Assembly (NCBI GenBank): GCA_043811995.1
Contig: JBDRMP010000055.1
Location: 372-64,371 of the forward strand
Source: Planctomycetota bacterium
Lineage (GTDB): Bacteria; Planctomycetota; Phycisphaerae; Sedimentisphaerales; Anaerobacaceae
Direction: 5' to 3'
DNA length: 64,000 bases
Below the pieces are notes generated by a model. It had not been told where the DNA came from. It did no database searches and saw only the letters and a list, made by a program, of their open reading frames with translations. The translations under genes and the position numbers were made by a program. This document shows positions 26,598 through 55,827 of this stretch, piece after piece (the first letter of the stretch is position 1; each line of letters opens with the position of its first letter).

Positions 26598-26684
26598 AGC
26601 AAAGCTGAGTTTATGAGATAATGTCCTGATATATAACTCATCGACCCATCTGTGCCTTCACAGGCCTGGACAGGAGTAAAACAA

Positions 26685-27338
26685 GTGAGTATAAGAGTTC
26701 TTTTGGCAGACGACCACAAAATAATCAGGCAGGGACTTCGGTCGCTGCTCGAAAAACAGCAGGATATGGAGGTCGTCGCCGAGGCCGAAGACGGCAGAAG
26801 CGCTGTCCGCCTCGCAGCCGAAACGGCGCCCGACGTCGTAATTATGGATGTTACTATGCCCGACTTAAACGGGGTCGAGGCGACAAAGCAAATCCTCTCG
26901 AATTCCCCCGACATCAAAATCGTCGCTCTGTCGATGCACTCCGACTCGATGTTCGTTGCCGAGATGCTCAAAAACGGCGCCGTCGGCTACCTGCTCAAGG
27001 ACTGCGCATTTGAAGAGCTTGACAAGGCCATACGAACCGTCCTCGACAACAAGACCTATCTGAGCCCCGCGATTTCGGGCGTTGTCCTCGAGGACTATAT
27101 CTACCGGCTCTCCAAGACCGGCTTCGCCGGCCCCGATGTCATCAGCGACAGAGAACGCGAGGTCCTTCAGCTTATGGCCGAGGGCTACTCCACAAAAAAA
27201 ATCGCCCAAAAGCTTCACATCAGCATCAAGACAGTTGAGACGCATCGTCGGCATATGATGGCTAAGCTGGACATTCATACCATCGCCGAACTTACCAAGT
27301 ACGCTATTCGCAAAGGTTTTACATCGCTCGAAAAATAG
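26685..27338 (+). CDS. NarL/LuxR-family response regulator
   Basis: AGGAG lies 8 nt before the GTG at 26685. Receiver domain IRVLLADDHKIIRQGL...DVVIMDVTMPDLNG; C-terminal LuxR HTH REREVLQLMAEGYSTKKIAQKLHISIKTVETHR. Confidence 0.9.
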   Translation: MSIRVLLADDHKIIRQGLRSLLEKQQDMEVVAEAEDGRSAVRLAAETAPDVVIMDVTMPDLNGVEATKQILSNSPDIKIVALSMHSDSMFVAEMLKNGAVGYLLKDCAFEELDKAIRTVLDNKTYLSPAISGVVLEDYIYRLSKTGFAGPDVISDREREVLQLMAEGYSTKKIAQKLHISIKTVETHRRHMMAKLDIHTIAELTKYAIRKGFTSLEK

Positions 27339-27772: not shown

Positions 27773-28975
27773 ATGATAAACAAAATACTGCTGTCTATCG
27801 CGTTGGCAGCCCTTGTCCTTATGGCGTTCGGCTGCCACAAACCACAGGCACGTGTCCTGGCCCCTCCCCAATACGACAGACCTCTCGCCCCGGGCCAGTT
27901 GGCGCTGCGAAAAATCACTAACCCCGCCGATATCCCCGATTTCACGGATGCCTGTCACAACCTCACGAATCTTTCTGCTTCCATCGACAACTCGCTCAAT
28001 TATCTCAAAAAACCCTCAAGCCAGCGTTTTTTCCCATACGCCGACATTACTCACGAACACGCCGTACGCTCGCTTACCGCGTTCAAAGACCTGCTAAACT
28101 CGGGCCTGACGGGTCGGCAGCTCAACGACGCTATCCGTCAGCGATTCGATGTCTATGAGTCCGTCGGATGCGATGATATGGGCACTGTCCTTTTCACTGG
28201 CTACTACACCCCCATTTTCGACGGCTCAACTGCTAAAACAGCACAATTCCAATACCCCCTCTACCGCCAGCCGGATGACCTCGTAAAAGGCGCAGATGGC
28301 CAGATACTCGGCAGACGAAGCCTCGACGACCAGATAACTCCCTATCCCGCACGCGCCGAAATCGAAAATTCTAATATGCTGACCGGCTCGGAAATCGTCT
28401 GGCTCGACGACCCTTTCAAATGCTATGTCGCACAGGTCCAGGGCTCCGCAATTATTCGCTCGCCAGATGGTCAGCTCGTCACTTATGGCTACGCCGCAAA
28501 CAACGGTTATGACTATGTGAGCATCAATAAGATTCTCGTTAACGAAGGCAAAATCACATCTGACCGCTTAAACTTGGATTCTTTAATTGATTTCTTCAAG
28601 GCCAACTCTTCATTAGTCCGCCAATATACGCAGCTTAATCCGAGGTTCGTCTTTTTTAAGCAGTCAAGCGAAAGCACCCCTCGCGGCAGCTTGAATGAGC
28701 CGGTTACCCCTTATAGAAGCATCGCCACCGACAAATCCATTTACCCACGCGCCTGCCTGACGTTTTTCACTACAAAACTTCCGCGTCAGATTGGCAATAT
28801 GACCTATAACGACCCGTTCGCCGGCTTCGCCCTCGACCAGGACACGGGCGGCGCAATCCGAGCGGCGGGCCGATGCGATATCTACCTCGGCATAGGCGAT
28901 GAGGCGGGTAAGCTCGCCGGCCAGACCTATCAGGAAGGCCGACTCTATTACCTCTTCCCAAAACCCGGCTCCTGA
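27773..28975 (+). CDS. mltA: membrane-bound lytic murein transglycosylase A
   Basis: Lipoprotein signal (LVLMAFGC). FTGYYTPIFDGS..., GSAIIRSPDGQLVTYGYAANNGYDYVSI and a 3D-domain end DQDTGGAIRAAGRCDIYLGIG are the MltA hallmarks. Confidence 0.9.
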   Translation: MINKILLSIALAALVLMAFGCHKPQARVLAPPQYDRPLAPGQLALRKITNPADIPDFTDACHNLTNLSASIDNSLNYLKKPSSQRFFPYADITHEHAVRSLTAFKDLLNSGLTGRQLNDAIRQRFDVYESVGCDDMGTVLFTGYYTPIFDGSTAKTAQFQYPLYRQPDDLVKGADGQILGRRSLDDQITPYPARAEIENSNMLTGSEIVWLDDPFKCYVAQVQGSAIIRSPDGQLVTYGYAANNGYDYVSINKILVNEGKITSDRLNLDSLIDFFKANSSLVRQYTQLNPRFVFFKQSSESTPRGSLNEPVTPYRSIATDKSIYPRACLTFFTTKLPRQIGNMTYNDPFAGFALDQDTGGAIRAAGRCDIYLGIGDEAGKLAGQTYQEGRLYYLFPKPGS

Positions 28976-31908: not shown

Positions 31909-32424
31909 GTGGATATATTCGGACACATAAATAAGGCAAACATCTTCAGCCGTCAAAACGGCCACCATCGCTCAAATACGGGTCTGCGAATGGCGCCGAT
32001 GATTGATATGATTTTCCTGCTGCTGATTTTCTTCCTCGTCGCCGCGAAGTGGAGGCCAAAAGAGGATTTCCTCCCGTTACAGCTTGCAACCGCCGGTTTC
32101 GGAGCTCAGGCCATCGGCAAACCCGAGCCGCTGCTAATCCAAATCTCACAGGCCGATGCTGTTTGCCGCGTTCAAATCGGCTCTCTTTATGCCGTGGATA
32201 TACCCGCACAAAATCCTGAGCAGGGACTTGCAAATCTGATTAAAAAAACCAGACAGTGCCTGCACGAACAGAAACGATATGCTACCGACCCCATCGAAAT
32301 AATTTGCGCCCCCGACGTGAAATGGGAGAATCTCGCCAAAATCTACAGTGTCTTTGTCGGTATGGGATTAAACGACATTACTTTCCAAATGACTGAGGCA
32401 TCGAACGATGAATCGGCCAGGTAA
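31909..32424 (+). CDS. exbD: ExbD/TolR family biopolymer transport protein (no adjacent ExbB)
   Basis: ...RMAPMIDMIFLLLIFFLVAA... is the ExbD TM signature, followed by a periplasmic domain. GTG start at 31909, uncertain. Confidence 0.75.
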   Translation: MDIFGHINKANIFSRQNGHHRSNTGLRMAPMIDMIFLLLIFFLVAAKWRPKEDFLPLQLATAGFGAQAIGKPEPLLIQISQADAVCRVQIGSLYAVDIPAQNPEQGLANLIKKTRQCLHEQKRYATDPIEIICAPDVKWENLAKIYSVFVGMGLNDITFQMTEASNDESAR

Positions 32425-34510
32425 CGTCAGCCGGCTGTTCGTTTTTATCCTTCTTTTGACGACTACGTCTTTTGCAAATCCGCCTTCTCCTGAATCCATT
32501 CAGCAGATTATCAGCGCCTCTAAATTAGAATGGGAGAAATTTGAAGACAAAAGTTTTATGCTGCGAATGCAGTTTGACCTGTCGGGCCGATTGCTCAACG
32601 ACAGGGATAAGACATTTTTCTGTGAGCTCGCCGCAAACGCACGAAACCAGCTTGACCAATACGTGAATCAACAACAATCAATGCTCGAACAAATCGAGAA
32701 ATATGAGGGTGCGGACTGGGAACAAAAATATGGCTCTACGGGACTTTGGCGACAGCTTGCCGCTGCCGTCGAAACAACAAAATTAAACCAAGCGCAAATC
32801 GATTACCTCTATTCGATTATTTGTGAAAATTTGCAACCCTCCGACCTCGTTAGGGAAAAGCTTTTCAAAAGAAAATTAAGGTCTGATTTGAGCTTGTGCG
32901 AGGTGCTGAAGGTATCAATAGAGCAAATCAAATACTTCGGTCCTTCCGAGCCGAATGAACTGAACGATGTTGCTCAATCCCTGGCTAAAAGCGAATGTAA
33001 AGACGACCCGGAAATGCTGCTCACGCTGGTAATCCTTCAACACAGGTATTCTCCCGATGAGCTTCGGAACACATTGTCGCACTCTCCACAGACCGCAATT
33101 TTGCTGGGTAAATTGCTCCTCGCAGATTTTTCGAGCCGATTCTCACAATCGCCCGCAGACGTTAATTTAGAATTGGTTAGTTCCTTCGATGTGGAATTGG
33201 CCGCAGTTGCCGCATTGCAGGAAGGTCCGAAGTCGTATGCCGACCTTATAGCAACACTGGCTCAAAACGACAGATTTCAAACCCCGGCCGTTCTCTATGC
33301 GGCGGCGATATTGTGTCAGGATGCCCGGCCCCAAAAGACAGTTGAGCTGCTGATTAAAGCAAGCAATTCCCAATTGCAGCAACGAAACCAGCTGCTCGCA
33401 ATCACTCCCGAGCAAATAGCCGAACAGGCGTTTAACGTTGCATATTACGCCTTTACACAGGACCCGAACAATTGTAAGCCGGCCATAGACGCCTTTGATA
33501 ACTACTCCCGAATCGCCTCGGAGAGAATAAATGAGCAGACGCAATATCTGTATGGCGTTTTGCTCTGCAATTGCAACAGGATAAGCGAAGCGGCCGAAGT
33601 GTTCAGACGGCTGGCAAATCAATCGCAATCAATTTGGCGTGACGCTGCGAGTCTCGAATTGCTCAAAATAGAGCTTAACACAACCACTGCTCCGACAGAT
33701 CTTACACGACTGCACGATTTCATCCTCACCTGCACGCGACCAGAGGAGCAAGAAACCCAAATCCGCCGCGATGCGATGAACATATATTGTCAACTCCTTC
33801 TCCACCGGGATAGCTCCGATGCTGCTGCAAAGATCCTCGATATTCTCAACGCCGCCGAACCAACTCCAGGCCTGCGATATGACCTGTTCAGGGCACAATC
33901 ATTTTGGAAATTAGGCCGACTGGAAGAATCAGCTCGATATATGTCAAAAGCCGTCAACGAGAACAACAACTCATTGACACCTCTCGCAGGACAAATAACA
34001 TATGAAATCCTAAATAAAATTGAGATCTGGCAACAGAACGCTCTTGATTTCAACCAAATGCTGCTCGACTGCAACACACTGGCCGAATTCGCACACAAAT
34101 CCATAGACAACCGACAAACCGCCCTGTTGCTTGCCGAATCATCAATCCTTCGGGGCGACCTCAACTTGGCACAATCTCTGCTTAACCTATTGGCCGACGA
34201 AAACGACATTGGCTGGCTGCGACCACAAGCCCGATTACTGATGGCACGAGGCGAATTCGAACAATCCGCCAAACTCTGGGCCAGAATAACCGAACTGAGA
34301 CGAAACGATATGACCGAATTGAACCGGAAAAGCTATGGCTGGTGGCAGGCCAAATTTTACGAGCTTGACTGCCTCGCAAAATCCCCCGATGCAGACAAAC
34401 AAAATATCGCTCATACTATCGACGTGCTTTTTAACAGTTTATCCTATATTCCCCCACTATGGGCTCAAAAACTTGAATTGCTGAAAAAGCAGCTCCCGAA
34501 TAATCCCTGA
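32408..34510 (+). CDS. secreted all-helical (TPR-like) protein, unknown function
   Basis: 700 aa. Signal peptide SRLFVFILLLTTTSFANPP. Leu/Ala/Gln-rich helical repeats throughout. Overlaps the exbD stop by 17 nt. Confidence 0.7.
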   Translation: MNRPGNVSRLFVFILLLTTTSFANPPSPESIQQIISASKLEWEKFEDKSFMLRMQFDLSGRLLNDRDKTFFCELAANARNQLDQYVNQQQSMLEQIEKYEGADWEQKYGSTGLWRQLAAAVETTKLNQAQIDYLYSIICENLQPSDLVREKLFKRKLRSDLSLCEVLKVSIEQIKYFGPSEPNELNDVAQSLAKSECKDDPEMLLTLVILQHRYSPDELRNTLSHSPQTAILLGKLLLADFSSRFSQSPADVNLELVSSFDVELAAVAALQEGPKSYADLIATLAQNDRFQTPAVLYAAAILCQDARPQKTVELLIKASNSQLQQRNQLLAITPEQIAEQAFNVAYYAFTQDPNNCKPAIDAFDNYSRIASERINEQTQYLYGVLLCNCNRISEAAEVFRRLANQSQSIWRDAASLELLKIELNTTTAPTDLTRLHDFILTCTRPEEQETQIRRDAMNIYCQLLLHRDSSDAAAKILDILNAAEPTPGLRYDLFRAQSFWKLGRLEESARYMSKAVNENNNSLTPLAGQITYEILNKIEIWQQNALDFNQMLLDCNTLAEFAHKSIDNRQTALLLAESSILRGDLNLAQSLLNLLADENDIGWLRPQARLLMARGEFEQSAKLWARITELRRNDMTELNRKSYGWWQAKFYELDCLAKSPDADKQNIAHTIDVLFNSLSYIPPLWAQKLELLKKQLPNNP

Positions 34511-34603: not shown

Positions 34604-35878
34604 ATGGCAAAACAATCGGATAACCAAAGAACAAGGGCCGTATGCAGCTTCTGCGGCAAGGCAAACAACCAGCGGGAGGCCTTCATCGAAGGCCCTAACA
34701 AGGTCTATATCTGCCCCGACTGCGTCGGACTCTGCAGCGACATTATCAGGCAAAACCGCAAACAGGCCAGCAGGGCGGCAATCGGCAGCAAAAAACTGCC
34801 CATACCCAGAGAAATAAAAGAATATCTCGACCAGTACGTTATTGGCCAGGAGCACGCCAAAAAATATCTCGCCGTGGCGGTCCACAATCACTACAAGCGG
34901 TTGCGCCACGTGGATAGTCAAAATAGCGACGTTGAGGTGGACAAATCCAACGTCCTGCTTATTGGTCCCACCGGCTCAGGCAAAACTCTGCTGGCTAAAA
35001 CGCTGGCGCGGTTCCTCGACGTCCCCTTTGCAATCTGCGATGCCACCACCGTCACCGAGGCCGGCTACGTCGGCGAAGACGTCGAAAATTTCCTCCTTCG
35101 ACTCCTGCAGAATGCCGACTTCGACCTCGAAGCCGCGCAGCGGGGAATCGTCTATATCGACGAAATCGACAAAGTAGGAAAGACCTCCCAGAACATCTCA
35201 ATCACAAGAGACGTCTCCGGCGAGGGGGTCCAGCAGGCGCTTCTCAAAATGCTCGAAGGAACTACCGCCAATATCCCGCCGCAGGGAGGCCGTAAACACC
35301 CCGAGCAAAGTTATATCCAGATGGACACTACGCACATCCTGTTCATCTGTGGCGGCACGTTCGTCGGGCTGGAAAATATCGTCAAGAAACGCTTAGGCAA
35401 AAAAATGATTGGCTTCGACTCCGAGCTTTCCGGCAAAACCGACAACAAAAAAGATTACAGCGATATTATTAAACAGGTCATCCCCGAAGATATTATCGAG
35501 TATGGGATGATTCCCGAAATGGTAGGCCGCCTCCCTGTCATCACTACGCTGTCCGCGCTCGACGAGCAGGCCCTCATCGACATCCTGACCAAACCCAAAA
35601 ACGCCCTCGTCCGACAGTATCAGCGTTTCTTCGAGATGGAAAATGCCGAGCTCGAATTTACCGACGGCGCCCTGCACGCCCTGGCCAAAAAGGCGCTCCA
35701 GCGGGACACCGGCGCACGTGCCCTTCGCGCTATCGCCGAAGAGCTGATGGTCGATTTGATGTATCGGCTGCCCGAAGAAGCAAACCCGGCAAAATACGTA
35801 ATCACGGAAAGTATTGTCGAAGGAAAAGCAGACCTCGCCACCGCAAAACAAAAATCCGCAAAAAAAGAATCCGCGTAG
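34604..35878 (+). CDS. clpX: ATP-dependent Clp protease ATP-binding subunit ClpX
   Basis: Zinc-binding N-terminus CSFCGK...CPDC. Walker [12 protein letters not shown], Walker [13 protein letters not shown]-like loop region and sensor motifs. Confidence 0.95.
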
Positions 35879-35939
35879 GAAACCACATCTGATGCCCCAA
35901 ACACACCTCTCACACAAAAAATTATCAAAGGAGCACAAA

Positions 35940-37016
35940 ATGCTTTCACGAAAGCAAATCACGTATCTCGTATTAGGCATTATCATAACCATATCCTGCA
36001 ATCTGTCAGCCAAACCAATAAAATGTTTTGTCCCATCCAAGCCCTGGGCCGTCACCATAGACCTCGGCGACTTTGAGCCGGCCGAATTCCTCGGACCCAA
36101 GACAATTCTTGGTGGTAACACCAAAGACGGGCTAAATTTAACCATTATTATCGAAATAACAAAACCGGGCACAAACCCTGTCGAAATGAGAAAACTTTAT
36201 GGCTATAGATATGCCCTTGGCGCCGGTCAAAAAGAAACTATCGAAGAAATCGACCTCAATGACATCGCAGTAATTACATACAAATGGGCAACACCAGCTC
36301 TCCCCGATGTTAATAAAGCAGTTCAAAACCGAGTAAAAGAATGGTCGGAGAATACGTGGGGCTTCAATGGTTATATTGTCAAAGACGATGTCGCCTTTGA
36401 CATCCATCTCTCCGCCGATATGAACAAGCACACAAAAGCACAGATGCTCGATATAATCAAATCATTCCAGATTGCGCCTTCGACGGAGCAGGAAGAATTC
36501 CTCAAATTGAGAAACACGCTCGCCTCCTCTTTAACTGACCAGGAAAAGGTCAAGTTCGCGAACGACTTCGCCCAAAAATATCCTGCAAATCCCGATATCC
36601 AGTTTATGCTCGGTGAACACTATTTCGCAAAAAAGAACCACCAAAAAGCAAGGATGTCTTATCTCCAGGCACTCGACAACCACAAGATACAACCCATAAC
36701 CAATCCGCAGGTAATGCTGCTGTGCTATGACGGGTTAGGGATGTGCGGCGGCATCTTAAAGGAATACGAACTGGCTGAAAAATATCTCAAGGCCGGCTAT
36801 GATTTGGCCAAGACAATCGAAGAACGGGAATATATCGGGCTATTGGCCTATAATCTCGCTTGCTTATACGCCGAGACCGGTAAACTCGAGGAGAGTGTCA
36901 AATATCTCAGCGAGGCCATCACAATAAATCGGGAATGCAAAGAAGAAGCAAAGCAGGACTCTTCATTTGACAAAATCCGAGATGATATTAGGTTCAAAAA
37001 TCTTGTCGGCAAATGA
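35940..37016 (+). CDS. secreted protein or lipoprotein with a C-terminal TPR domain
   Basis: AAAGGAG RBS before the ATG at 35940. Signal sequence MLSRKQITYLVLGIIITISCNLSA. C-terminal TPR units ending ...DSSFDKIRDDIRFKNLV. The track ORF start at 35814 overlaps the clpX 3' end and is rejected. Confidence 0.7.
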   Translation: MLSRKQITYLVLGIIITISCNLSAKPIKCFVPSKPWAVTIDLGDFEPAEFLGPKTILGGNTKDGLNLTIIIEITKPGTNPVEMRKLYGYRYALGAGQKETIEEIDLNDIAVITYKWATPALPDVNKAVQNRVKEWSENTWGFNGYIVKDDVAFDIHLSADMNKHTKAQMLDIIKSFQIAPSTEQEEFLKLRNTLASSLTDQEKVKFANDFAQKYPANPDIQFMLGEHYFAKKNHQKARMSYLQALDNHKIQPITNPQVMLLCYDGLGMCGGILKEYELAEKYLKAGYDLAKTIEEREYIGLLAYNLACLYAETGKLEESVKYLSEAITINRECKEEAKQDSSFDKIRDDIRFKNLVGK

Positions 37017-37018
37017 AA

Positions 37019-37495
37019 TCACTGCGAATCCGCCTGTCCGTCCCTAATTACCGCTAAGCGGATGTCTGTTGCGTTGCTTTTGGCCAATGCCGCCAAAGCG
37101 TATTGCGCCTCGGAATAGGCAACGTCCTTGTCGATTCGCAATGTTACGGTCCTGTTTTCGGACGGGAGTGTCTTCAGCCGTTCATTTATCAGTCCGGAAA
37201 GTTTGTCTGCAACTTCAGCGTAGTTTGACGCCTGGATTTTTTCGCTACCAACCGCAAATTCGCTCATCGCGCCGTCGGTCTTCATAACTGTGACCGTCGT
37301 AGATGCCGTCTGCGTTTCGACATCGCTCTGGGCGTTCTCGCAGCCCGTCGGTACCGCGACAGGGAAATTCTCCGCCTCGATGAATTTGCAGACCACCGCG
37401 AAGAAAATTATCAGTAGAAACACGATATCAATCACCGGCGTCAGGTTAAACGCCGGCTCATTACCGCTGGTTACGTTTATAATTCTCGAACGCAT
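37019..37495 (-). CDS. exbD: ExbD/TolR family protein
   Basis: ...PAFNLTPVIDIVFLLIIFFAVV... is the ExbD signature. The ATG at 37495 overlaps the exbB stop (TGATG). Confidence 0.85.
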   Translation of the reverse strand: MRSRIINVTSGNEPAFNLTPVIDIVFLLIIFFAVVCKFIEAENFPVAVPTGCENAQSDVETQTASTTVTVMKTDGAMSEFAVGSEKIQASNYAEVADKLSGLINERLKTLPSENRTVTLRIDKDVAYSEAQYALAALAKSNATDIRLAVIRDGQADSQ

Positions 37496-38358
37496 CAACG
37501 CTCATCCAGCAATTGCTTCTGTTGTTTAATCTGTCCGGAGCTCTTGCCCCGTATCTCACGGATGGTTAGCTTCGCAGGACCCGTTGAATCTCTCGCGCCC
37601 TCCATCCGCTTGCGCAATACTCGCCTGACCTGTGCCAAAATTTCCTCGCCTTGCGTTATAGCTTCATTGGCCAGCGTCTCGATTCGATTGCGAAATATGC
37701 CATACGCGGCCAATGCGGGAATCGCGATTAGAAGCCCCCAGAACGTCGTCACAAGGGCGACTGATATCCCCGCAGCCAACTGAACCGGCTGCGGTTGTCC
37801 CCCGGCGGCCACCATCGCGTTGAAAAGCTGTATCATCCCGACTACCGTCCCGAACAAACCAACCATCGGTGATACGTTGCCAATCAGGTTTATCCACTCT
37901 ATCCGTCGCATAAGCGATACCGCCTGGTCCTGCACTGATTCAAACATCGTCTCACGCATCCTGAACCAGTCGTCAACACCTTTGGATAGCGCCTTCGAAA
38001 CCGCAGTGCCGAGAATGTCGTCCCTTTGCCCGATTTCAACTGCCAGTCGCTTAAGCTCCGCCTCCTGCGCGAGGCGCGTTATCTCGGCCCCCGCATCGGC
38101 AGGCAGCAGCGTTTTACGCCGGATAGTCAAACAGTACTCAGCCGCAAGATAAACCATCACCAGCGACATCGGCACTAAAATAAACCAGACAATCGGTCCT
38201 CCCGATATAACAAACTGTTCCAAAAGCGTCCGCCCCTGTCCGGCCTGTACCTCCTTTGACGCAAGCCCCCCTCGCGTCGTCGTGAATATCACCCAGCCAA
38301 CTACTGCCAGCAGCAACAACAAAAAAACGCCCCTAAGCAAAAGCCGCTTACGCACCAT
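37495..38358 (-). CDS. exbB: MotA/TolQ/ExbB proton-channel family protein
   Basis: ...NLIGNVSPMVGLFGTVVGMIQLFNAM...ISVALVTTFWGLLIAIPALAAYGIFRNR is the conserved ExbB/TolQ TM2-TM3 core. The ATG overlaps the upstream stop (TAATG). Confidence 0.88.
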   Translation of the reverse strand: MVRKRLLLRGVFLLLLLAVVGWVIFTTTRGGLASKEVQAGQGRTLLEQFVISGGPIVWFILVPMSLVMVYLAAEYCLTIRRKTLLPADAGAEITRLAQEAELKRLAVEIGQRDDILGTAVSKALSKGVDDWFRMRETMFESVQDQAVSLMRRIEWINLIGNVSPMVGLFGTVVGMIQLFNAMVAAGGQPQPVQLAAGISVALVTTFWGLLIAIPALAAYGIFRNRIETLANEAITQGEEILAQVRRVLRKRMEGARDSTGPAKLTIREIRGKSSGQIKQQKQLLDER

Positions 38359-39395
38359 TACCTCCTGCCTGACATCGCCTCAGAATTGTATCCGTCGTTT
38401 ACAACCTTGAACTCACCGCCGCTTTCTCTTGCAATCTTTTCGAGCGTGCGTCTGTCCTGCTCGCCCGGCCAAAAACCAATCGTGTTGATTTGTGTTTTGG
38501 GCGAGAAACTTCTCTGCATCGTCATAATCTGATGTGCAAATTGCGTTCCGTCCTGTTCGCCCAGCTCAAAACCATCCGTCAAAAAATATATTACCGAGGG
38601 CCCGACGTTCGTATCATCCCGAATATGCACCGCCGTCTGTATCGCCGCCGGCGCGTTAGTCGCACCCGCGGGCCGCAGAGAATCGATAAAACCGTATGCC
38701 TCTTTTTTGGCTCGCTCGCTCGCCCGCACCATTTTACCGCCGCCTGATTGCTGCACGCTACCCGCGCCAAAGGCAATCACACAAAAATACTGGTCGGCTT
38801 CCAATCGGCCGATTGATTCGATTAGCTCGCCTCGCACACATCGCCAAAGTCCCTGCATGCTGCCGGAGCAATCCACGACGTAACAGATTCGCCTGCCCCG
38901 TGCGGTGCTTCCAAAAAATTCCACCTGCGCCGTTTGCGTTTTATTTGCGGTCGGCAATCCGGCCGGTTCGAGAGGGATATCGCTTGATGGTATTGATTGG
39001 TAATTGGGATTTGGAATTTGTGATGCGGGATTTGGCAACATTCTTCCTTTTGCCTTTGATACAGGGCGACTTTCGCTGACAACTTTCGGCTTGGGAATAA
39101 CCGCCGGCAACTGCGACAATTGTCTGGCCTGACTGATACTGACTGCCGCTTGCGCCTGTTGGGCATTCACGCTCTGCTGTGAAAATTTCATCACCCCGAA
39201 AACCGACAGCACCACCACGTGTGCGAAAATCGACACCCCCCACGCACGCAATCTTATTCCCCGCCCTCTTTTATTAACCGTTCCCTGGTTCACAAAACCG
39301 GTATCCTTATAATACGACCGTTGCCGCCGCACTGCTGCCGACTCTGTGACAGCAGTAGCCAAAAACTCAATTTCTGACGTCAACCAGCGACACAC
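38358..39395 (-). CDS. membrane-anchored VWA (MIDAS) domain protein with a TonB-like N-terminal anchor
   Basis: Single TM helix WGVSIFAHVVVLSVFGVMKF containing S-x3-H. Gln/Ala/Pro-rich linker (...PAVIPKPKVV...PNPASQIPNPNYQSIP...). VWA domain with ICYVVDCSGSM (DxSxS MIDAS motif) and ...VIYFLTDG. The start is uncertain: the ORF overlaps the ldt 3' end by 29 nt. Confidence 0.8.
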   Translation of the reverse strand: MCRWLTSEIEFLATAVTESAAVRRQRSYYKDTGFVNQGTVNKRGRGIRLRAWGVSIFAHVVVLSVFGVMKFSQQSVNAQQAQAAVSISQARQLSQLPAVIPKPKVVSESRPVSKAKGRMLPNPASQIPNPNYQSIPSSDIPLEPAGLPTANKTQTAQVEFFGSTARGRRICYVVDCSGSMQGLWRCVRGELIESIGRLEADQYFCVIAFGAGSVQQSGGGKMVRASERAKKEAYGFIDSLRPAGATNAPAAIQTAVHIRDDTNVGPSVIYFLTDGFELGEQDGTQFAHQIMTMQRSFSPKTQINTIGFWPGEQDRRTLEKIARESGGEFKVVNDGYNSEAMSGRR

Positions 39396-40404
39396 CCGGC
39401 ATCATCAGGTTATAAACCGTTATCGCGTCGCCATTGTGCAGCCGAATGCAACCCTGCGAACCGGGGCTGCCGATTTGCTCCGGGTCCTTTGTGCCGTGAA
39501 TCGCAAAGCCCGTCCTGCCGACTGCCGCCCCTTCGATACCCTCCAGCGCTATCCACCGCGAACCCAGCGGATAATCCGGGTCTTCCGGATGATATGTCTT
39601 GCCGCTTATTGGGTCCGTCCATATCGGCTTCACCAGCTTGCCGCCCTCTTTGACACGCCAGCGACCCGCCGGCGTCTCCATCCCCGCCTTGCCTAATCCC
39701 ACCTTAAAACTTTTCACGTAAGTATTCTGCAGATATAAATCCATCGTAAACGTCGAGCGATAAACTATCGCGTTGAAAGGCCCGTTAATAACCTTTAGCG
39801 TCGCCCCGGCCCGAAGCAGCTCAGGCCGTTCGATTCCGTTTATCTGCATCAAAATCTCATAAGGCACATTGTACATCTCGCCGATTTTCGTCAACAAATC
39901 ACCCGGGCTTACCCTGTAGCTGCTGCACAGCTTGTCACCCGTAAAAACAACGTTGCTGAACAGCCACTTGTCCGATAACGCCGTAAGTTGCTCCTTCACA
40001 AACGCCCGCTGCTGCCCGCCCGTCATCGGTAATAATTCGTTCAGCCGGTCCCTCGCTTCAATTATCCTCGGCGGCTGCCGGTTCACAAGCTCCATCGCCT
40101 CGGTAACGAGTGCCGGTACTGTTTTGTCGGGTTCGGCCGTAATCACTGTCGCTGTGACCGGAGCAGCCGCATTCGGCCCTGGCTGTGGTTCAACAGGTAT
40201 GGGCTCGGCTGGCTTAACCTCCGCAACCATTTCCGCCGACGGCGCCGGCAAATCCTGTGTCGGCTTCGCCCCTCGATGCCGCGACACAATTACATACCCT
40301 ATCGCCGAAGCAATGCACAGCACGACCACTACTACCACAACATAGAAAATCGTGCGAAACCGGGTTGCTCGTTTCTCGTTATACCCGCCCGGATAAACAG
40401 CCAT
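39367..40404 (-). CDS. L,D-transpeptidase (YkuD domain) with a LysM domain
   Basis: RBS AAGGAAGGAG before the ATG at 40404. TM anchor. LysM YRVSPGDLLTKIGEMYNVPYEILMQINGI...ATLKVI. Catalytic block GFAIHGT...GSPGSQGCIRLHNGD (His/Cys). Confidence 0.88.
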   Translation of the reverse strand: MAVYPGGYNEKRATRFRTIFYVVVVVVVLCIASAIGYVIVSRHRGAKPTQDLPAPSAEMVAEVKPAEPIPVEPQPGPNAAAPVTATVITAEPDKTVPALVTEAMELVNRQPPRIIEARDRLNELLPMTGGQQRAFVKEQLTALSDKWLFSNVVFTGDKLCSSYRVSPGDLLTKIGEMYNVPYEILMQINGIERPELLRAGATLKVINGPFNAIVYRSTFTMDLYLQNTYVKSFKVGLGKAGMETPAGRWRVKEGGKLVKPIWTDPISGKTYHPEDPDYPLGSRWIALEGIEGAAVGRTGFAIHGTKDPEQIGSPGSQGCIRLHNGDAITVYNLMMPGVSLVDVRN

Positions 40405-40408: not shown

Positions 40409-41032
40409 TTATTCTCCTTCCTTGCCTTTTCTGCTTGGTCTCGCCTTCCTTGTCTCGGAATCGTCCTGACCAAAATACAGCACTTCTTCATCTGTTACCA
40501 GAAAATCCACCGGTACATCATGGTTCGTCACAGGCACTGAATCTATCACCTGCTCGGCAAAAGCAAAACCGCACTTCGGCGCATGCAAATCCTTGTTGAC
40601 AAAAAACCTGTCGTAATACGAACCTCCCCGACCCAGCCGGTTGCCCCCGCGGTCAAAACCCAACCCGGGCGCCACAACCAAATCAATATCTTCAAACGGC
40701 ACGGGCGCACCGGTTATCGGATTTCGCAGACCTGCAACATCCGCCGAAAAACCCGTCTCTAATGAGTTTATCTGCACGGGTATCATATGTCTCTGCTGCC
40801 ACGACACCTTCGGCACCACCACAATCTTGCCTAATTGCCAGGCACAAAGTATCGCCTCCGACGTATCAAGCTCGTGCGGCAGCGACAAATACATCATAAT
40901 CGCCGAAGCGCTCTGAAATTCTGGCGTTGAAATCAGGTTCCGGCACGCACTTCGACTTTTATCTTTGCGCTCCTCGTCCTTTATGCCAATCAGGCGTTTC
41001 TGCAATTCCAGCCGTAACTGCGTCTTATCCAT
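40409..41032 (-). CDS. 5-formyltetrahydrofolate cyclo-ligase
   Basis: ...IMMYLSLPHELDT...DLVVAPGLGFDRGGNRLGRGGSYYDRF... are the MTHFS family motifs. Confidence 0.85.
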   Translation of the reverse strand: MDKTQLRLELQKRLIGIKDEERKDKSRSACRNLISTPEFQSASAIMMYLSLPHELDTSEAILCAWQLGKIVVVPKVSWQQRHMIPVQINSLETGFSADVAGLRNPITGAPVPFEDIDLVVAPGLGFDRGGNRLGRGGSYYDRFFVNKDLHAPKCGFAFAEQVIDSVPVTNHDVPVDFLVTDEEVLYFGQDDSETRKARPSRKGKEGE

Positions 41033-41074: not shown

Positions 41075-42460
41075 TCAAGTGCCTTTTTCGCCGGTATCTC
41101 TTTGGGCCTTGCTCTCTTTTATCAATATTTCCAGCTTTTGTAAATAAGCCCGAATATTTTTTTCATATCCCCGCTCCGTCGGCCTGTAGTATCGCTTCTC
41201 GCCCAGTCCGGGAAGATATTCCTGCACCACAAATCCCTCCGCAAATTCGTGCGGATACTTATAATCCGCACCGAATCCCAGTTTTTTGGCTCCCGTGTAA
41301 TGACTGTCCTTCAAGTGCTTTGGAACCGCCACCGTCGGCTCATTTTGCACTTCGCCGCCCGCCTTCCATATCGCGGCTGCCGAGGCATTCGACTTCGGCG
41401 CACAAGCCACGTAAATCGCCGCCTGCGCGAGTGGCAACTGTGCCTCAGGCAAACCCACAAACTCGCTTATCTGGACCGCCGCTGCCGCCAATACCGTCGC
41501 CATCGGGTCGGCGTTACCCACGTCCTCTGCCGCACAAACCGCTATACGTCTCGCTATGAACCGCACGTCTTCACCGCCGGCAATCATTCTCGCAAGCCAG
41601 TAAACCGTCGCATCGGGGTCGCTGCCTCGCATACTCTTTTGAAAGGCACTGGCCAAATCATAGTGTGTATCGCCCGTCCCGTCGTATTCAATCGTCTTTC
41701 CCTGTATCGAATCTTTAGCTGTTTGCAAATCGAACTTTACCATTCCACCCGTTTTTCGGGTTGATTGCGACAGAACTCCCACTTCCAGCGCCGTCAATGC
41801 CTTTCTCGCGTCGCCGTCGCATACGGCTGCAAGATACTTAATCGCCTTTTCATCCGCCTCGATATCGTTTTTGCCAAGCCCTCTATCCTTGTCGCCAATC
41901 GCCCGCTTCAACAACTGCACAATATCATCTTCGTTCAACGGCTCAAAATAAAATACCGTGCTTCTGCTGATTAGTGGCGAGTTTATTGCGAAAAACGGAT
42001 TCTCCGTTGTCGCGCCTATGAACAGTAATATCCCCGATTCCACGTCATCCAAAAGCACGTCCTGCTGTGCCCGATTGAACCTGTGAATCTCATCTATGAA
42101 CAAAACCGTCCTGCCGCCACTTGCAGCCAACCGGTCTTTTGCCTCGGCGATTATGTCGCGGATGTCTTTGACGCTCGCCGCCGGCGCGCTTAGATATCGG
42201 AATTCCGCCTTCGTCTGGTTTGCGATGACATTCGCAAGAGATGTCTTGCCCACTCCCGGCGGGCCGTAAAAAATCAAGCTCGACAGGGCGTCCGCTTCCA
42301 GCATCCGCCGAAGAAGCTTACCTTCGCCGATAAAATGCCGCTGGCCCGCAAACTCATTTAACGACCTCGGCCTCATCCTAACCGCCAACGGTGCCGCTGC
42401 GGCTATCCTGGCTCGCTCCGAACCGCCAAACAGTGTCTTTTCATTCCTGCCCGCATTCAT
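41075..42460 (-). CDS. rarA: replication-associated recombination protein A (AAA+ ATPase RarA/MgsA)
   Basis: ...LIFYGPPGVGKTSLA (Walker A), VLFIDEIHRFN (Walker B/sensor) and the C-terminal MgsA domain ...YDLASAFQKSMRGSDPDATVYWLARM... Confidence 0.93.
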   Translation of the reverse strand: MNAGRNEKTLFGGSERARIAAAAPLAVRMRPRSLNEFAGQRHFIGEGKLLRRMLEADALSSLIFYGPPGVGKTSLANVIANQTKAEFRYLSAPAASVKDIRDIIAEAKDRLAASGGRTVLFIDEIHRFNRAQQDVLLDDVESGILLFIGATTENPFFAINSPLISRSTVFYFEPLNEDDIVQLLKRAIGDKDRGLGKNDIEADEKAIKYLAAVCDGDARKALTALEVGVLSQSTRKTGGMVKFDLQTAKDSIQGKTIEYDGTGDTHYDLASAFQKSMRGSDPDATVYWLARMIAGGEDVRFIARRIAVCAAEDVGNADPMATVLAAAAVQISEFVGLPEAQLPLAQAAIYVACAPKSNASAAAIWKAGGEVQNEPTVAVPKHLKDSHYTGAKKLGFGADYKYPHEFAEGFVVQEYLPGLGEKRYYRPTERGYEKNIRAYLQKLEILIKESKAQRDTGEKGT

Positions 42461-48251: not shown

Positions 48252-49268
48252 TTAAACCGTCCGCCCGGCGACAAATCTCGCCGTCTCAATAAGGGCGTTC
48301 TTCCCCTCGCTGTTCTTTAGTCCCCCCAGTGACTTGATTGCCTGTTTCACAAATTTCTCCACACGCCTTTGGGCGTACTCGATGCTGCCGTTCTCTCTCA
48401 GTATTTTCGCCAGAGAGAAAATCGCCCGTTTCGAGCTGCTCCGGGGGTGGTTAATCAACCTTCTTGCAGCGGCCTTTTCCTTCTTCCCTGCCGAATTGAA
48501 AAAATGTATCAGCGGCAAAGTCAGCTTGTCGTGCTCCAGGTCATTGCCGACTGATTTACCCGTCCTGGCCTCGACGCCCGTCAAATCGAGCAAATCGTCG
48601 GTAATCTGAAACGCAATACCGGTATTGCGCCCGTAATCGGCCAAAATCCGCACCTGACGCTCGCTGCCGCCCGCCAGCATCGCCCCAAGCGAACACGCCC
48701 CGCTGAATAACGCCGCGGTCTTCTCTGTTATTATCTCAAAATATTGCGATTCACTGAGATGCCAGTTGCCCCTCTGTGCCGTTTGGCGCAACTCACCTTC
48801 ACACGTCCGCACGGCGGCCGAGGCGATAGTTGCAGCCGCTTTTGTATCCAGCTCAACACACAGCCGAAATACCCTGCTTAATAAAAAATCTCCGAGTAAA
48901 ACTGCCGACTCATTGCCCCGCATATGGTTGAGTGTCGCTGCGCCTCGCCGCGTAGTGCCCTCGTCAACTACGTCGTCGTGCAGCAAAGTCGCGTTATGAA
49001 TCATTTCGACTATTCCGCCCCCTCGTATGTGCCTTTCCGTTATTCTGCCGCACACAAGACCCGAAAGCAGCAACAGTCCGGGCCGAATCATCTTCCCTTT
49101 GACCGCTGCGATATAACCCGCCAAATCCCTGACAGGTTTGCTGCAATCCAACAGCTCACGCTCAATCAGTGCCCTTACCTGTGAAAGCTCCTTGGCGATA
49201 ATTGAAAACGTATGGAGTGTTCCGCCGGCGGAGCCCAAACCGCCGCATCTTTGTGCTGATGATTGCAT
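48252..49268 (-). CDS. trans-polyprenyl diphosphate synthase (IspB-like)
   Basis: First and second Asp-rich motifs LLHDDVVDEG and FQITDDLLD. The start is uncertain: the track uses a GTG at 49292 and I prefer the ATG at 49268. Confidence 0.88.
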   Translation of the reverse strand: MQSSAQRCGGLGSAGGTLHTFSIIAKELSQVRALIERELLDCSKPVRDLAGYIAAVKGKMIRPGLLLLSGLVCGRITERHIRGGGIVEMIHNATLLHDDVVDEGTTRRGAATLNHMRGNESAVLLGDFLLSRVFRLCVELDTKAAATIASAAVRTCEGELRQTAQRGNWHLSESQYFEIITEKTAALFSGACSLGAMLAGGSERQVRILADYGRNTGIAFQITDDLLDLTGVEARTGKSVGNDLEHDKLTLPLIHFFNSAGKKEKAAARRLINHPRSSSKRAIFSLAKILRENGSIEYAQRRVEKFVKQAIKSLGGLKNSEGKNALIETARFVAGRTV

Positions 49269-49288
49269 CGTGCCGATTATGCAGCCCG

Positions 49289-49386
49289 GCACTTATTTTG
49301 AGCAATGACTCTCGAATAATTTGCGACCGCCGCTTCGTCAATCAAACTTTATCCCGAATCCGACAATCGCAACTCAAAATAAGTGC
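49289..49386. repeat. perfect 14-bp inverted repeat bracketing the ilvE / polyprenyl-synthase spacer
   Basis: GCACTTATTTTGAG (49289-49302) and CTCAAAATAAGTGC (49373-49386), 70 nt apart. Confidence 0.85.
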
Positions 49387-49390
49387 TGGG

Positions 49391-50257
49391 CTACTTCTCC
49401 TTTCCGTGTGCGTATCGGAAAAATTTGTCTCTTAACCGCCTGGTGATTGGACCGGGCCTTCCGTCGCCGATTACCCGGCCGTCTATCTCCACAACACCTA
49501 TGACCTCCGCCGCCGTCCCTGTTAAAAACAGCTCATCGCTTATATACAAGTCAAACCTCGTCAGGTTCTTCTCTACTGCCTTAATCCCATTTTTGCCCGC
49601 CAGCCGAATCACAACCTCCCTTGTAATGCCCTCAAGCCCGCCTGCTTCGACAGGCGGCGTATAAATGGCGCCCTTGCGGACCATAAAGACGTTGTCGCCC
49701 GTCGCCTCTGCCACGTACCCCTCGTGGTTATACATAATCGCCTCAGGCACGTTGTTATCGAGCGCCTCTATCTTGGCCAGGATATTATTCAGATAGTTCA
49801 TACTCTTGATCTGGGGCGGTATCGCCAGCGGATGGTTACGCACCGTCACCGCGCTGATAATCTTGAGCCCCTTCTCATACAGCTCCTCGGGGTATAGCTG
49901 GATATTGTCCGCGATTATGAACACCGTAGGTGGCTCGCAGGTAAAGGGATTCAGTCCCAGCGACCCAACGCCGCGGGTAACAACCAGCCGGATGTAACCA
50001 TCCACCACGCCGTTGGCCTCGACGGTTTTGTTCAGCGCATCGATAAGCTTCTCCCTGCTCATCGGGATATCGAGCCGAATCCCCCTCGCCGAGTTGTAAA
50101 GCCGCTCTATATGTGCATCAAGCTCAAAGACCCGCCCGTTGTAAACCCGTATTCCCTCGAAGACCCCGTCGCCATACAATAAGCCGTGGTCAAAGACGGA
50201 TATCTTTGCGTCCTGCTCATCTACAAGTTTATCGCCAAGCCAAATTTTCAACGCCAT
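49391..50257 (-). CDS. ilvE: branched-chain amino acid aminotransferase (class IV)
   Basis: ...ISVFDHGLLYGDGVFEGIRVYNGRVFELDAHIERL...; 288 aa, typical short IlvE. Confidence 0.9.
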   Translation of the reverse strand: MALKIWLGDKLVDEQDAKISVFDHGLLYGDGVFEGIRVYNGRVFELDAHIERLYNSARGIRLDIPMSREKLIDALNKTVEANGVVDGYIRLVVTRGVGSLGLNPFTCEPPTVFIIADNIQLYPEELYEKGLKIISAVTVRNHPLAIPPQIKSMNYLNNILAKIEALDNNVPEAIMYNHEGYVAEATGDNVFMVRKGAIYTPPVEAGGLEGITREVVIRLAGKNGIKAVEKNLTRFDLYISDELFLTGTAAEVIGVVEIDGRVIGDGRPGPITRRLRDKFFRYAHGKEK

Positions 50258-50325
50258 AATTTCTCCCTTGGCCTTCTTACTTTCGCCTTTCTTGTCACGG
50301 CATAGCCCCTTGGGCGAAGCCGGAT

Positions 50326-51021
50326 TTACTTTATCCTGCCGTCCGCCAGCGTTATTATCCGCCCGGCCCGTTTTGCAACCCGCTCATCGTGCGTGACCAT
50401 AACTATGGTCTGACCTGCGTGATTCAACTTTTCGAGCAGTTCCAGAATACCATTTCCCGTCGCAGAGTCAAGGTTGCCCGTTGGCTCATCTGCCAAAAGC
50501 AGCTTCGGCTCATTAACCAGCGCCCTCGCTATCGCCGCCCGCTGCCGTTCCCCCCCGGATAACTGATACGGCTTATGCGCCGCCCTTTCCCCCAGACCGA
50601 CCGCTTCCAGCAATTCTCGCCCTTTTTTCCTCACGGAACCTCGCACAGACAACCAGTGAATCACTCCCGCCGGCACCATCGCGGGCAAAATCACGTTCTC
50701 CAGCACGTTTAATTCGTCCAATAAATGATAAAACTGAAACACAAACCCAACCGTTTTATTGCGGTACCTGTTCAGCTCTCCGCCGCTCATCCCGTCCAGC
50801 TTTCGCCCCTCGAATCGCACGGTTCCTTTATCGGGTCTGTCCAGCGCGCCTAAAATGTGAAGCAGCGTGCTTTTCCCGCTGCCCGACGCGCCCACTATCG
50901 CGGCAAATTCCCCTTTCCTGACCGCGACGTCAGCCCCCTTAAGGACGCGGACCTCAGCCGCACCCATCCTGTAGGATTTATAAATCCCCTGCGCCTCTAT
51001 TATGAAATTACCTTCGCTCAT
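50326..51021 (-). CDS. lolD: lipoprotein-releasing system ATP-binding protein LolD-type ABC ATPase
   Basis: Walker A GASGSGKSTLL, signature LSGGERQR, Walker B LLLADEPTGNLD. Overlaps the upstream permease stop (ATGA). Confidence 0.85.
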   Translation of the reverse strand: MSEGNFIIEAQGIYKSYRMGAAEVRVLKGADVAVRKGEFAAIVGASGSGKSTLLHILGALDRPDKGTVRFEGRKLDGMSGGELNRYRNKTVGFVFQFYHLLDELNVLENVILPAMVPAGVIHWLSVRGSVRKKGRELLEAVGLGERAAHKPYQLSGGERQRAAIARALVNEPKLLLADEPTGNLDSATGNGILELLEKLNHAGQTIVMVTHDERVAKRAGRIITLADGRIK

Positions 51022-52367: not shown

Positions 52368-52372
52368 CTGGT

Positions 52373-52857
52373 AAATGTCCAATGTCGAATATCGAACTCC
52401 CAATGTCCAAATGCACGCGGTTATCCTCTTCTCTTTGCTGTTTTCACGCTCGCGGCGAAAATTGCAATAAGCTCGCAATCTTCATTTAACACTTTCGACA
52501 CCATTCCGGTCGGCTTAACCAGCCCCTTTAGTTGAATAATCAAAAGCCATATCCGTGTTTCACGCAATTCTTTCAATGCCACTCGCATCTTATGAATGAA
52601 ATCGCTTCGAGATTCCGCACTTTGTGCTTCTCCGTAATTCGCTGCCGGAGATGTTCCGCTGCGAACAAGCTGATTGCCGATGTGGTTCCCTACTCGCGTG
52701 TTCGGTAAACTTTCAACTATATCAATGACATCAATAGAAAAGTCAATCAACCTTTTTTCTAAATCAAACTTATGATTTCCTTTGCATTTTTCCGTTTCCA
52801 TTTCCTGTGCCACTCTTACTTGGACATTTAATATTTGATATTGGACATTGGACATTT
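52373..52857 (-). mobile_element. IVS-like cassette: four-helix-bundle gene flanked by ~40-nt imperfect inverted arms made of 7-nt repeats
   Basis: Outer 21 nt: AAATGTCCAATGTCGAATATC (52373-52393, plus strand) against the reverse complement of 52837-52857, AAATGTCCAATGTCCAATATC (20/21). The arms extend to about 40 nt (about 32/40). The cassette fills the whole lolE-lolC spacer. Mobility is inferred, not shown. Confidence 0.6.
52421..52801 (-). CDS. four-helix-bundle protein (TIGR02436 / 23S rRNA intervening-sequence protein family)
   Basis: ...FDLEKRLIDFSIDVIDIVESLP...GNQLVRSGTSPAANYGEAQSAESRSDFIHKMRVALKELRETRIWLLI... matches the family consensus (Q..RS.TS..ANY.EA....S..DF..K...A.KE..ET..WL). 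Start placed at METEKC; the track ORF begins 26 codons earlier inside the repeat arm. Confidence 0.8.
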   Translation of the reverse strand: METEKCKGNHKFDLEKRLIDFSIDVIDIVESLPNTRVGNHIGNQLVRSGTSPAANYGEAQSAESRSDFIHKMRVALKELRETRIWLLIIQLKGLVKPTGMVSKVLNEDCELIAIFAASVKTAKRRG

Positions 52858-52859
52858 TC

Positions 52860-54173: not shown

Positions 54174-54183
54174 CCCTTTTCTA

Positions 54184-55821: not shown

Positions 55822-55827
55822 TGGAGC

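Follow-up and report, generated by a model that had tools for sequence, protein, structure and literature searches.

Introduction

TonB and TolA are, to our knowledge, the only well-understood means by which energy from the inner membrane of bacteria reaches the outer envelope, and their terminal domains are of one type. A class of "vWA force transducers" (an SHLS helix, a motor box and a vWA domain, encoded beside tolQ/tolR) was described in 2025 (Mol Biol Evol; PMC12204202, section 8); it is often accompanied by a TPR gene and two tolR genes, Planctomycetes are listed, and its function is stated to be unknown. In the AlphaFold3 models of that paper, the transducer His occupies the motor site used by TonB and TolA, and the class seed, Tichowtungia aerotolerans, has no recognisable TonB/TolA. 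A second class from the same paper, the TPH-vWA proteins, also combines an inner-membrane-tethered VWA domain with a TolQ-like pentamer, but it lacks the Ser/His pair, has an Asp in its helix as ExbD does, and occurs with tolQ only, with no tolR/exbD nearby. The supplement of PMC12204202 cites Witwinowski et al. for the absence of pal from Planctomycetes.

Here, we describe a VWA protein and its ExbB/ExbD-type motor from a planctomycete. The locus lies within a window of 64 kb, by which we mean the whole stretch of DNA that was analysed. It probably encodes a stator of the ExbB/TolQ-ExbD/TolR type, driven by the proton motive force (PMF), whose output is a TonB/TolA-like inner-membrane transducer ending in a periplasmic VWA domain with a metal-ion-dependent adhesion site (MIDAS). 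The clade-wide family to which it belongs is new as a member of a class that was already proposed computationally in 2025 and is experimentally uncharacterised. The initial annotation of this DNA, which knew of no characterised example, was thus right as far as experiments go, but a computational description of the class existed (PMC12204202).

Results and discussion

The VWA protein, an ExbB/TolQ homologue and an ExbD/TolR homologue are encoded by three tightly coupled minus-strand genes (Table 1). Their overlap at the boundaries, already seen in the initial annotation, was confirmed by the ORF coordinates and by both junctions. At the VWA/ExbB junction (AGGAGGTAATG), one base is common to the stop and the start, with a perfect Shine-Dalgarno sequence ahead; at the ExbB/ExbD junction (TTGATG), the ExbD start overlaps the ExbB stop. 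Of the earlier account of the first protein, the transmembrane (TM) helix with its S-x3-H arrangement and the DCSGSM motif stood, and the length of 345 aa was corrected: the gene almost certainly starts at GTG 39293 and encodes 311 aa. This codon is preceded by AAGGA and coincides with the start of database gene call P0001 and with the aligned N-termini of homologues. The VWA gene therefore begins 73 nt past the stop of the transpeptidase gene upstream and does not overlap it. Residue numbers below refer to the 311-aa protein unless stated otherwise. A promoter and terminator scan gave counts no higher than in shuffled sequence.

Table 1. Genes and open reading frames of the motor locus and its candidate partners (positions in the window)
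Feature	Position	Strand	Length	Domain matches
ExbD/TolR-type ORF (ExbD1)	37019-37498	minus	159 aa	
ExbB/TolQ-type ORF	37495-38358	minus	287 aa	
VWA ORF, maximal	38358-39395	minus	345 aa	
VWA gene, corrected (vWA force-transducer candidate)	38358-39293	minus	311 aa	
LysM + YkuD L,D-transpeptidase, membrane-anchored, directly upstream of the VWA gene	39367-40404	minus		Pfam LysM 8.5e-8, YkuD 6.7e-18
Second ExbD/TolR paralogue (ExbD2, orphan)	31909-32424	plus	171 aa	Pfam ExbD 1.3e-11
P700, secreted all-alpha TPR-like solenoid	32408-34510	plus	700 aa	Weak Pfam TPR matches

Judged by its sequence, the 287-aa protein is an ExbB/TolQ-type subunit of a predicted pentameric stator. It matched Pfam MotA_ExbB (4.8e-28); its top NCBIfam match was TolQ (1.5e-20, far below the cut-off of the TolQ model), and its closest solved relative was E. 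coli TolQ (8odt, 1.8e-11), with the Thr motifs aligned. Both channel threonines are kept, in GLFGTV and ALVTT, and the protein has an extra N-terminal hydrophobic segment. The ExbD/TolR-type protein matched Pfam ExbD (1.6e-15) and, as its top NCBIfam match, TolR (3.2e-9, below the cut-off), and has its TM Asp in TPVIDIVFLL. The features expected of a 5:2 stator of the ExbB/TolQ/MotA type were thus all found: a MotA_ExbB domain, the channel Thr, and an ExbD/TolR partner with a TM Asp.

The VWA protein opens with a short, basic stretch, which leads into a single TM helix (residues ~15 to 37, AF2), and the five Lys/Arg before the helix point to an N-in topology. The helix, WGVSIFAHVVVLSVFGVMKF, carries S21-x3-H25 and F/L32. 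Among 82 distinct sequences of the family, Ser21 is kept in 81 and His25 and F/L32 (H+7) in all, and the flanking TM positions vary freely. The fourth position of the SHLS pattern, which would be a Ser at H+11, is Lys/Arg in this family, whose conserved Ser is at H+13. Alignment with hhalign put the helix in register with S16/H20 of E. coli TonB, as a weak match (E 0.014, 18 columns), and a profile of the N-terminal 70 residues, searched against all PDB chains, had no match even at E ≤ 10, TonB and TolA included. Homology of the anchor to TonB is therefore based on motif and position, not on statistics.

The linker (residues 38 to 125, ~88 residues) contains Pro and Lys and is predicted to be disordered, with low pLDDT, and not helical (AF2). 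In the 82 family sequences it is variable except for two conserved blocks, residues 49 to 59 and PKPKV at 67 to 71. The first block is a candidate motor box: it lies ~12 to 22 residues beyond the helix, a position equivalent to that of the ExbD-binding TonB residues 41 to 61, which are seen as a peptide bound to ExbD in structure 8P9R (PMC10771500). The AF2 monomer model has a low-confidence helix, not a strand, at residues 53 to 60 within this block. With its invariant S-x3-H face, the N-terminus appears not to be a generic anchor, and its register with TonB and the placing of the linker blocks agree with the TonB-like start that had been proposed for the protein.

An ordinary membrane-anchored periplasmic VWA protein (BatA/BatB-like), beside exbBD through inherited gene order and with no coupling to the motor, would fit both the statistical weakness of the N-terminal similarity to TonB and the frozen synteny of the clade, which extends to unrelated genes. 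For a passive anchor, however, an invariant Ser and His one helical turn apart in a variable TM helix would be unexpected, as would near-invariant linker motifs. The stop-start overlap and the strong Shine-Dalgarno sequence within the end of the VWA gene indicate co-translation with ExbB, and no other transducer gene lies beside exbB-exbD in any locus examined. We regard an uncoupled VWA protein as very unlikely.

The C-terminal VWA/MIDAS domain (residues ~130 to 300) was modelled with pLDDT above 90 (AF2), and the protein stops ~10 residues later. Pfam matched VWA, VWA_2 and VWA_3 at about 1e-5, and the top Foldseek matches of the modelled domain were the VWA domains of ITIH1/ITIH4, Cav alpha2delta and ANTXR2. 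A MIDAS consists of DxSxS with a downstream Thr and Asp, which coordinate the metal. The DCSGSM motif is part of a complete site here, with D141, S143, S145, T212 and D240 invariant in an alignment of 30 sequences. No TonB_C, TonB_2 or TolA match was found in the protein with Pfam or NCBIfam and the model contains the VWA fold only, which rules out a cryptic TonB/TolA C-terminal domain and bears out the earlier view that a VWA domain stands in its place.

In the Agl-Glt gliding machinery, GltG and GltJ are TonB-like and the adhesin CglB has a VWA domain. NCBIfam aligned residues 41 to 153 (345-aa numbering) with the gliding protein GltJ (E 0.002, 17 bits, cut-off 450); this match was treated as non-evidence, being far below the cut-off and spanning the TM helix and a low-complexity linker. 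A surface motility or adhesion motor, in which an Agl-Glt-like transducer couples the motor to a surface adhesin track, was proposed in PMC12204202, and the large TPR protein and two ExbD-like subunits near our locus recall the Agl/Glt parts lists. Against such a motor, no other Glt/Agl-like gene, outer-membrane platform or adhesin was found among the scanned ORFs of the locus, and the VWA domain sits on an inner-membrane tether rather than at the cell surface. A motility or adhesion motor is highly improbable here.

By architecture, and with the seed compared by description only, the system falls within the "vWA force transducer" class. It shares with the SHLS type a Ser/His TM helix, a disordered stretch that includes a conserved block, a linker of ~100 residues and a C-terminal VWA domain, as well as one adjacent tolQ-like gene, two different tolR-like genes and a TPR gene. 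It differs from the Tichowtungia seed in gene order, VWA-tolQ-tolR, where the transducer leads instead of coming last, and in having one transducer where the seed locus has two. Unlike in the published class, the second tolR and the TPR-like gene lie in a separate, convergent operon across clpX, and a LysM L,D-transpeptidase is always directly upstream. A TPH-vWA identity, with the transducer as an ExbD-like rotor, was rejected on the absence of Asp from the helix and the presence of ExbD genes.

The VWA protein resembles TonB (E. coli ExbB-ExbD-TonB; PDB 9ddo and 8p9r) in its one N-in TM helix, whose Ser-x3-His aligns in register with S16/H20, in a conserved segment soon after this helix, at the point where TonB binds ExbD, in a disordered Pro/Lys linker that includes PKPKV, and in the place of its gene beside exbB-exbD. 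It has no TonB C-terminal domain, so that beta-strand pairing with a TonB box is impossible for it, and its output is a MIDAS-containing VWA domain. The protein might still substitute for TonB in import, energising nutrient or polymer transporters of the outer membrane through a MIDAS grip on an acidic motif of the transporter, instead of pairing strands with a TonB box. The motor, the anchor, the length of the linker and the position of the motor box are closer to TonB than to TolA, the linker is disordered with Pro/Lys rather than helical, and the seed species of the class has neither TonB nor TolA in recognisable form (PMC12204202). However, no TonB-dependent receptor was found among the ORFs scanned beyond the first 15 kb of the 64-kb window or among the Pfam-matched genes of some related loci; the cluster sits in frozen housekeeping synteny, not in substrate-specific or regulated uptake loci; and the best matches of ExbB and ExbD are TolQ and TolR, though weakly. 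An import function is therefore considered unlikely.

A further comparison is with TolA and the Tol-Pal system. The stator subunits score best against TolQ/TolR, the transducer has the Ser/His helix, and the housekeeping locus also encodes peptidoglycan enzymes, together with a periplasmic TPR-like protein that may be compared to CpoB. The VWA protein differs from TolA in lacking domain III and the helical domain II, no tolB or pal is present in the locus, and every match to TolQ or TolR scores far under its equivalog cut-off. TolA, TolB and Pal domains were absent from the scanned parts of the window and from related loci.

Three neighbouring genes may belong with the motor. The L,D-transpeptidase, recognised by its LysM and YkuD domains and with a GSQGCIRL stretch in its translation, lies immediately upstream, as had been noted, and may be part of the motor system. 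ExbD2 is a candidate second subunit of the same motor: its TM Asp is in APMIDMIFLL, it is 39% identical to ExbD1 across the TM region, and it has no ExbB of its own nearby. It lies upstream of P700 in about 36 of 85 loci, which are all those whose flank extends to it, and also in one further locus (L087). The start of P700 overlaps the end of exbD2. The P700 model (AF2, mean pLDDT 88, 34 helices) had only TPR superhelices as Foldseek matches, and P700 homologues are confined to the same clade. We consider P700 a candidate periplasmic partner or scaffold. Its identification as CpoB was rejected, the similarities being those of generic TPR proteins; the JGI label "TolA-binding protein" that some homologues bear is an automatic annotation.

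The VWA family is discrete. At E ≤ 1e-30 it comprises 177 clusters, whose members are nearly all full length, and in an exhaustive search of representatives nearly all of the best 150 of the 177 had one architecture. A genome scan gave 131 species-level genome matches, and the 80 inspected were all of the Phycisphaerae type. Synteny was compared in 85 loci and in four remote members, with identities as low as about 36%; all are from Sedimentisphaerales-type Phycisphaerae. Wherever a related locus is long enough to reveal it, FTHF-ligase, LysM-L,D-transpeptidase, VWA, ExbB and ExbD follow one another in the same order. The transpeptidase immediately precedes the VWA gene in each of the 85 loci and in the four remote members, and ExbD2 and P700 are found a few kb from these genes wherever the locus extends that far. 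The arrangement of the initial annotation is thus conserved in all relatives examined, and the cluster occurs once per related locus.

This synteny is frozen over tens of kb in the clade. Unrelated neighbours are collinear too, 5-FTHF cyclo-ligase in all the loci examined and rarA and clpX in most of them, so gene order alone does not prove the transpeptidase, ExbD2 or P700 to be functionally linked, and the cell-wall role that the adjacent transpeptidase had suggested stays a hint. Relatives outside the clade, sought to separate linkage from frozen synteny, were not found, and the remotest members keep the gene order. An anti-phage defence role (Zorya-like MotAB, VWA conflict systems) was rejected; PADLOC had no match for six proteins, and the context is one of housekeeping genes.

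For the PMF-driven VWA transducer, we propose the following mechanism. The single TM helix would dock outside the ExbB pentamer through its Ser21/His25 face, and the block ~12 to 22 residues past the helix would be captured by the periplasmic ExbD dimer, which may consist of ExbD1 and the orphan ExbD2. Proton flow would rotate ExbD and thereby pull on the ~88-residue linker, and the VWA domain, via the MIDAS metal, would hold an acidic residue of a ligand at the peptidoglycan or the outer membrane. At the weakest step of this proposal, we infer that the most likely role would be a Tol-like one, to maintain or tether the envelope, and not the import of nutrients, because each locus has the cluster once, collinear with genes for housekeeping and the envelope, and Pal is reported to be missing from the phylum.

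A more specific and doubtful form of this role is that the cluster replaces Tol-Pal in the planctomycete lineage as a core, single-copy, PMF-driven tether. A protein of the outer membrane, or one bound to peptidoglycan, would be caught by the MIDAS; attaching or remodelling this protein would fall to the L,D-transpeptidase, and a heteromeric ExbD1/ExbD2 pair with the 700-aa TPR scaffold would position the motor. If true, force would be coupled by a metal-mediated catch; we know of no 5:2 motor for which such a catch, rather than beta-strand pairing, has been demonstrated.

A conserved motor arm with a metal-dependent adhesion domain implies a different grip on the target, and a VWA-ended arm may mark a third cellular job for ExbB/ExbD-type motors. 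To the 2025 description, our analysis adds a discrete clade-wide family, with 131 species-level genome matches and 177 clusters; a precise set of invariant residues (S21, H25, block 49 to 59, PKPKV and the MIDAS); and fixed candidate partners, namely the LysM L,D-transpeptidase, the second ExbD and the large TPR-like periplasmic protein. These residues and candidate partners make the function experimentally approachable in a phylum that is reported to lack Pal.

The VWA protein, a TonB-like anchored candidate transducer that ends in a VWA/MIDAS domain, is encoded next to an ExbB/ExbD motor (see the table), which confirms the observation of the initial annotation with a corrected start codon. 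Both reported overlapping junctions were found: the stop codon of the VWA gene has one base in common with the start codon of exbB, within AGGAGGTAATG, and the ExbB/ExbD overlap is TTGATG. The length of 345 aa first assigned to the VWA protein is that of its maximal open reading frame, which is overextended by 34 codons (window 39293-39395, minus strand). The database gene call (P0001) and aligned homologue N termini instead place the start at GTG 39293, preceded by AAGGA and 73 nt past the transpeptidase stop, giving the 311-aa version by which residues are numbered here; the gene therefore does not overlap that of the L,D-transpeptidase (LDT).

Genes at the VWA-motor locus and of the convergent ExbD2 operon in the window
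Feature	Position	Strand	Remarks
rarA/mgsA	41075-42460	-	First in minus-strand order
5-Formyltetrahydrofolate cyclo-ligase (FTHF ligase)	40409-41032	-	After rarA/mgsA
LysM + YkuD L,D-transpeptidase (LDT), membrane-anchored	39367-40404	-	Directly upstream of VWA protein
VWA protein, 311 aa	38358-39293	-	VWA at about 1e-5 (Pfam)
ExbB/TolQ homologue	37495-38358	-	MotA_ExbB 4.8e-28
ExbD/TolR homologue (ExbD1)	37019-37498	-	ExbD 1.6e-15
Orphan ExbD/TolR paralogue with TM Asp (ExbD2)	31909-32424	+	Pfam ExbD 1.3e-11
P700, 700-aa secreted protein	32408-34510	+	Start overlapped by ExbD2

The VWA protein has a single transmembrane (TM) helix (about residues 15-37) with five Lys/Arg ahead of it, which places the C terminus in the periplasm. 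The S-x3-H arrangement noted in this helix is near-invariant across 82 distinct sequences from related loci (S21 in 81, with one Thr; H25 in all); F or L occupies position 32 throughout, and the remaining helix positions vary freely. Alignment of the N-terminal profile with E. coli TonB (hhalign; sequence identical to PDB 9ddo_F) set S21 on S16 and H25 on H20, a weak match (E 0.014, 18 columns), and hmmsearch of the PDB with the same profile gave no match. The fourth SHLS position is not at canonical spacing, H+11 being K/R in the family and a conserved Ser falling at H+13.

The linker (residues 38-125) is variable and of low pLDDT, except for two conserved blocks, residues 49-59 (consensus P-T-A-[SK]-[IV]-S-[QR]-[IV]-K-K-L) and the near-invariant P-K-P-K-V at 67-71 (K68, 82/83; P69, 83/83). 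E. coli TonB residues 41-61 (AQPISVTMV...), 9-29 residues past the helix, insert between two ExbD periplasmic domains (8P9R; PMC10771500). Block 49-59 lies in the equivalent position, which makes it a candidate "motor box"; in the AF2 monomer, residues 53-60 are helical at low confidence.

Residues from about 130 to 300 were modeled as a VWA fold (AF2, pLDDT above 90), with the best Foldseek and sequence matches to VWA domains of inter-alpha-trypsin-inhibitor heavy chains, Cav alpha2delta, and anthrax-toxin receptor 2. The MIDAS set (D141-x-S143-x-S145, T212, D240) is invariant in the family alignment. No match to TonB_C, TonB_2, or TolA was found in the protein (Pfam, NCBIfam), and the chain stops about 10 residues past the VWA domain, too soon to hold a TonB C-terminal domain; the proposed replacement of that domain by a VWA domain thus holds. 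Two invariant cysteines (residues 137 and 142), unusual among VWA domains, flank the first MIDAS Asp (ICYVVDCSGSM) and might form a disulfide or an extra periplasmic metal ligand. A 708-aa secreted protein from the representative search (P0269) has three tandem VWA domains close to those of the family and lacks the Ser-x3-His anchor, so it is read as a relative of the output module of the transducer that is soluble or periplasmic.

ExbB aligned best with E. coli TolQ (8odt, 1.8e-11) and keeps both channel threonines (GLFGTV, ALVTT), and ExbD keeps its TM Asp. NCBIfam models ranked TolQ and TolR above ExbB and ExbD, every score being far under the equivalog cut-offs, and the pair is therefore assigned to the generic ExbB/TolQ-ExbD/TolR group. 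Service of the VWA transducer as a TonB substitute for import is unlikely. The ExbD2 and P700 pair occurs in all related loci with a flank long enough to include it, and no second ExbB was found in the neighborhood of ExbD2. P700 was modeled as a 34-helix TPR-like solenoid (mean pLDDT, 88) with solely generic TPR superhelix matches. Together with the main operon, the pair reproduces the published parts list of PVC bacteria, "TPR + tolQ + two tolR + vWA."

A genome scan (one genome per species) gave 131 genomes with a relative, of which 80 were kept, all of them MAGs labeled Sedimentisphaerales, Phycisphaerae, Planctomycetota, or crudely "uncultured." In these and five metagenome loci, the order rarA/FTHF ligase/LDT/VWA/ExbB/ExbD was found at every sufficiently long locus, with VWA identity down to about 36% among the 85 related loci. 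When 1.84 billion cluster representatives were searched exhaustively by HMM, 177 clusters were returned at E <= 1e-30, followed by generic VWA matches (3180 at E <= 1e-10); among the best 150 clusters, most were 290-340 aa and matched from the TM helix through to the end. S/T-x3-H was kept in the most remote full-length members inspected, as was FTHF-LDT-VWA-ExbB in all four remote members looked up (P0266, P0261, P0260, and P0254), so that the arrangement is conserved in relatives.

This synteny is clade-wide but frozen, the housekeeping neighbors (among them clpX, pyruvate:ferredoxin oxidoreductase, LolCDE-like genes, and a class IV aminotransferase) being equally collinear. Gene order alone is therefore no proof of membership for the transpeptidase; its position directly upstream stands, and the cell-wall link drawn from it is no more than a hint. 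A passive VWA anchor whose adjacency to the motor was merely inherited is very unlikely; the stronger evidence for coupling is the invariant polar pair of the helix, the conserved linker blocks, and translational coupling.

The same frozen synteny (window 27773-28975 and 48252-58207) includes several envelope genes, among them those for lytic transglycosylase MltA, LolCDE-like ABC/FtsX proteins, a class IV aminotransferase of the D-amino-acid type, a polyprenyl synthase, and a tail-specific protease (PDZ-S41). The exbD-clpX gap is a variable insertion site (in the window and L040, and also in L015, L027, and L047), holding a 400-aa TPR protein in the window (35814-37016, plus strand) and in one related locus (L040, 8328-9428), 1-3.5 kb of other inserted DNA in some loci, and nothing in most. 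Upstream of MltA (24147-27338, plus strand), there is, judged by translation only, a multi-PAS histidine kinase ORF (816 aa) and, next, one of 228 aa resembling a response regulator that ends in a helix-turn-helix; the two are unrelated to the VWA-motor finding.

Full-text search found one paper with this architecture ([quoted passage not shown] Mol Biol Evol 2025, PMC12204202), in which vWA transducers adjoin tolQ/tolR-like genes in Proteobacteria, Planctomycetes, Verrucomicrobia, Bacteroidetes, and Rhodothermaeota, AF3 models put a conserved His at the motor's TonB/TolA site, and no deletion phenotype is reported for them. The locus shares with that class a single tolQ-like gene, two tolR-like genes that differ from one another, a TPR-like gene, and a transducer of the SHLS-vWA type, and the VWA protein is assigned to the class by its defining features rather than by demonstrated homology to the seed sequences. 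In contrast to the published layout, the transducer gene leads, a convergent operon across clpX holds the second tolR together with the TPR gene, and a LysM L,D-transpeptidase is always immediately upstream. The second class of that paper (helix with Asp, no tolR) does not fit. The earlier interpretation is sound as far as testable, but not novel, the class having already been described by computation.

The best-supported reading, and probably the correct one, is that a proton-motive-force-driven 5:2 stator pulls a TonB-like arm whose MIDAS domain would grip an acidic residue of a periplasmic, peptidoglycan-bound, or outer-membrane partner. The S/H face of the transducer helix would dock on ExbB, ExbD may capture block 49-59, and ExbD1 and ExbD2 may form a heterodimer. 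We tentatively favor a Tol-like, envelope-maintenance role for this arm and stator, because the cluster occurs once per related locus examined, lies among housekeeping/envelope genes, and has its best scores against TolQ/TolR, and because the phylum is reported to have no pal (Witwinowski et al., as cited in the supplement of PMC12204202). A motility or adhesion motor, as suggested in PMC12204202, is the least probable reading, and no support was found for a defense role. The locus is a well-delimited, clade-wide addition to a class so far described by computation, and its value lies in offering precise invariant residues and fixed candidate partners for experiments.
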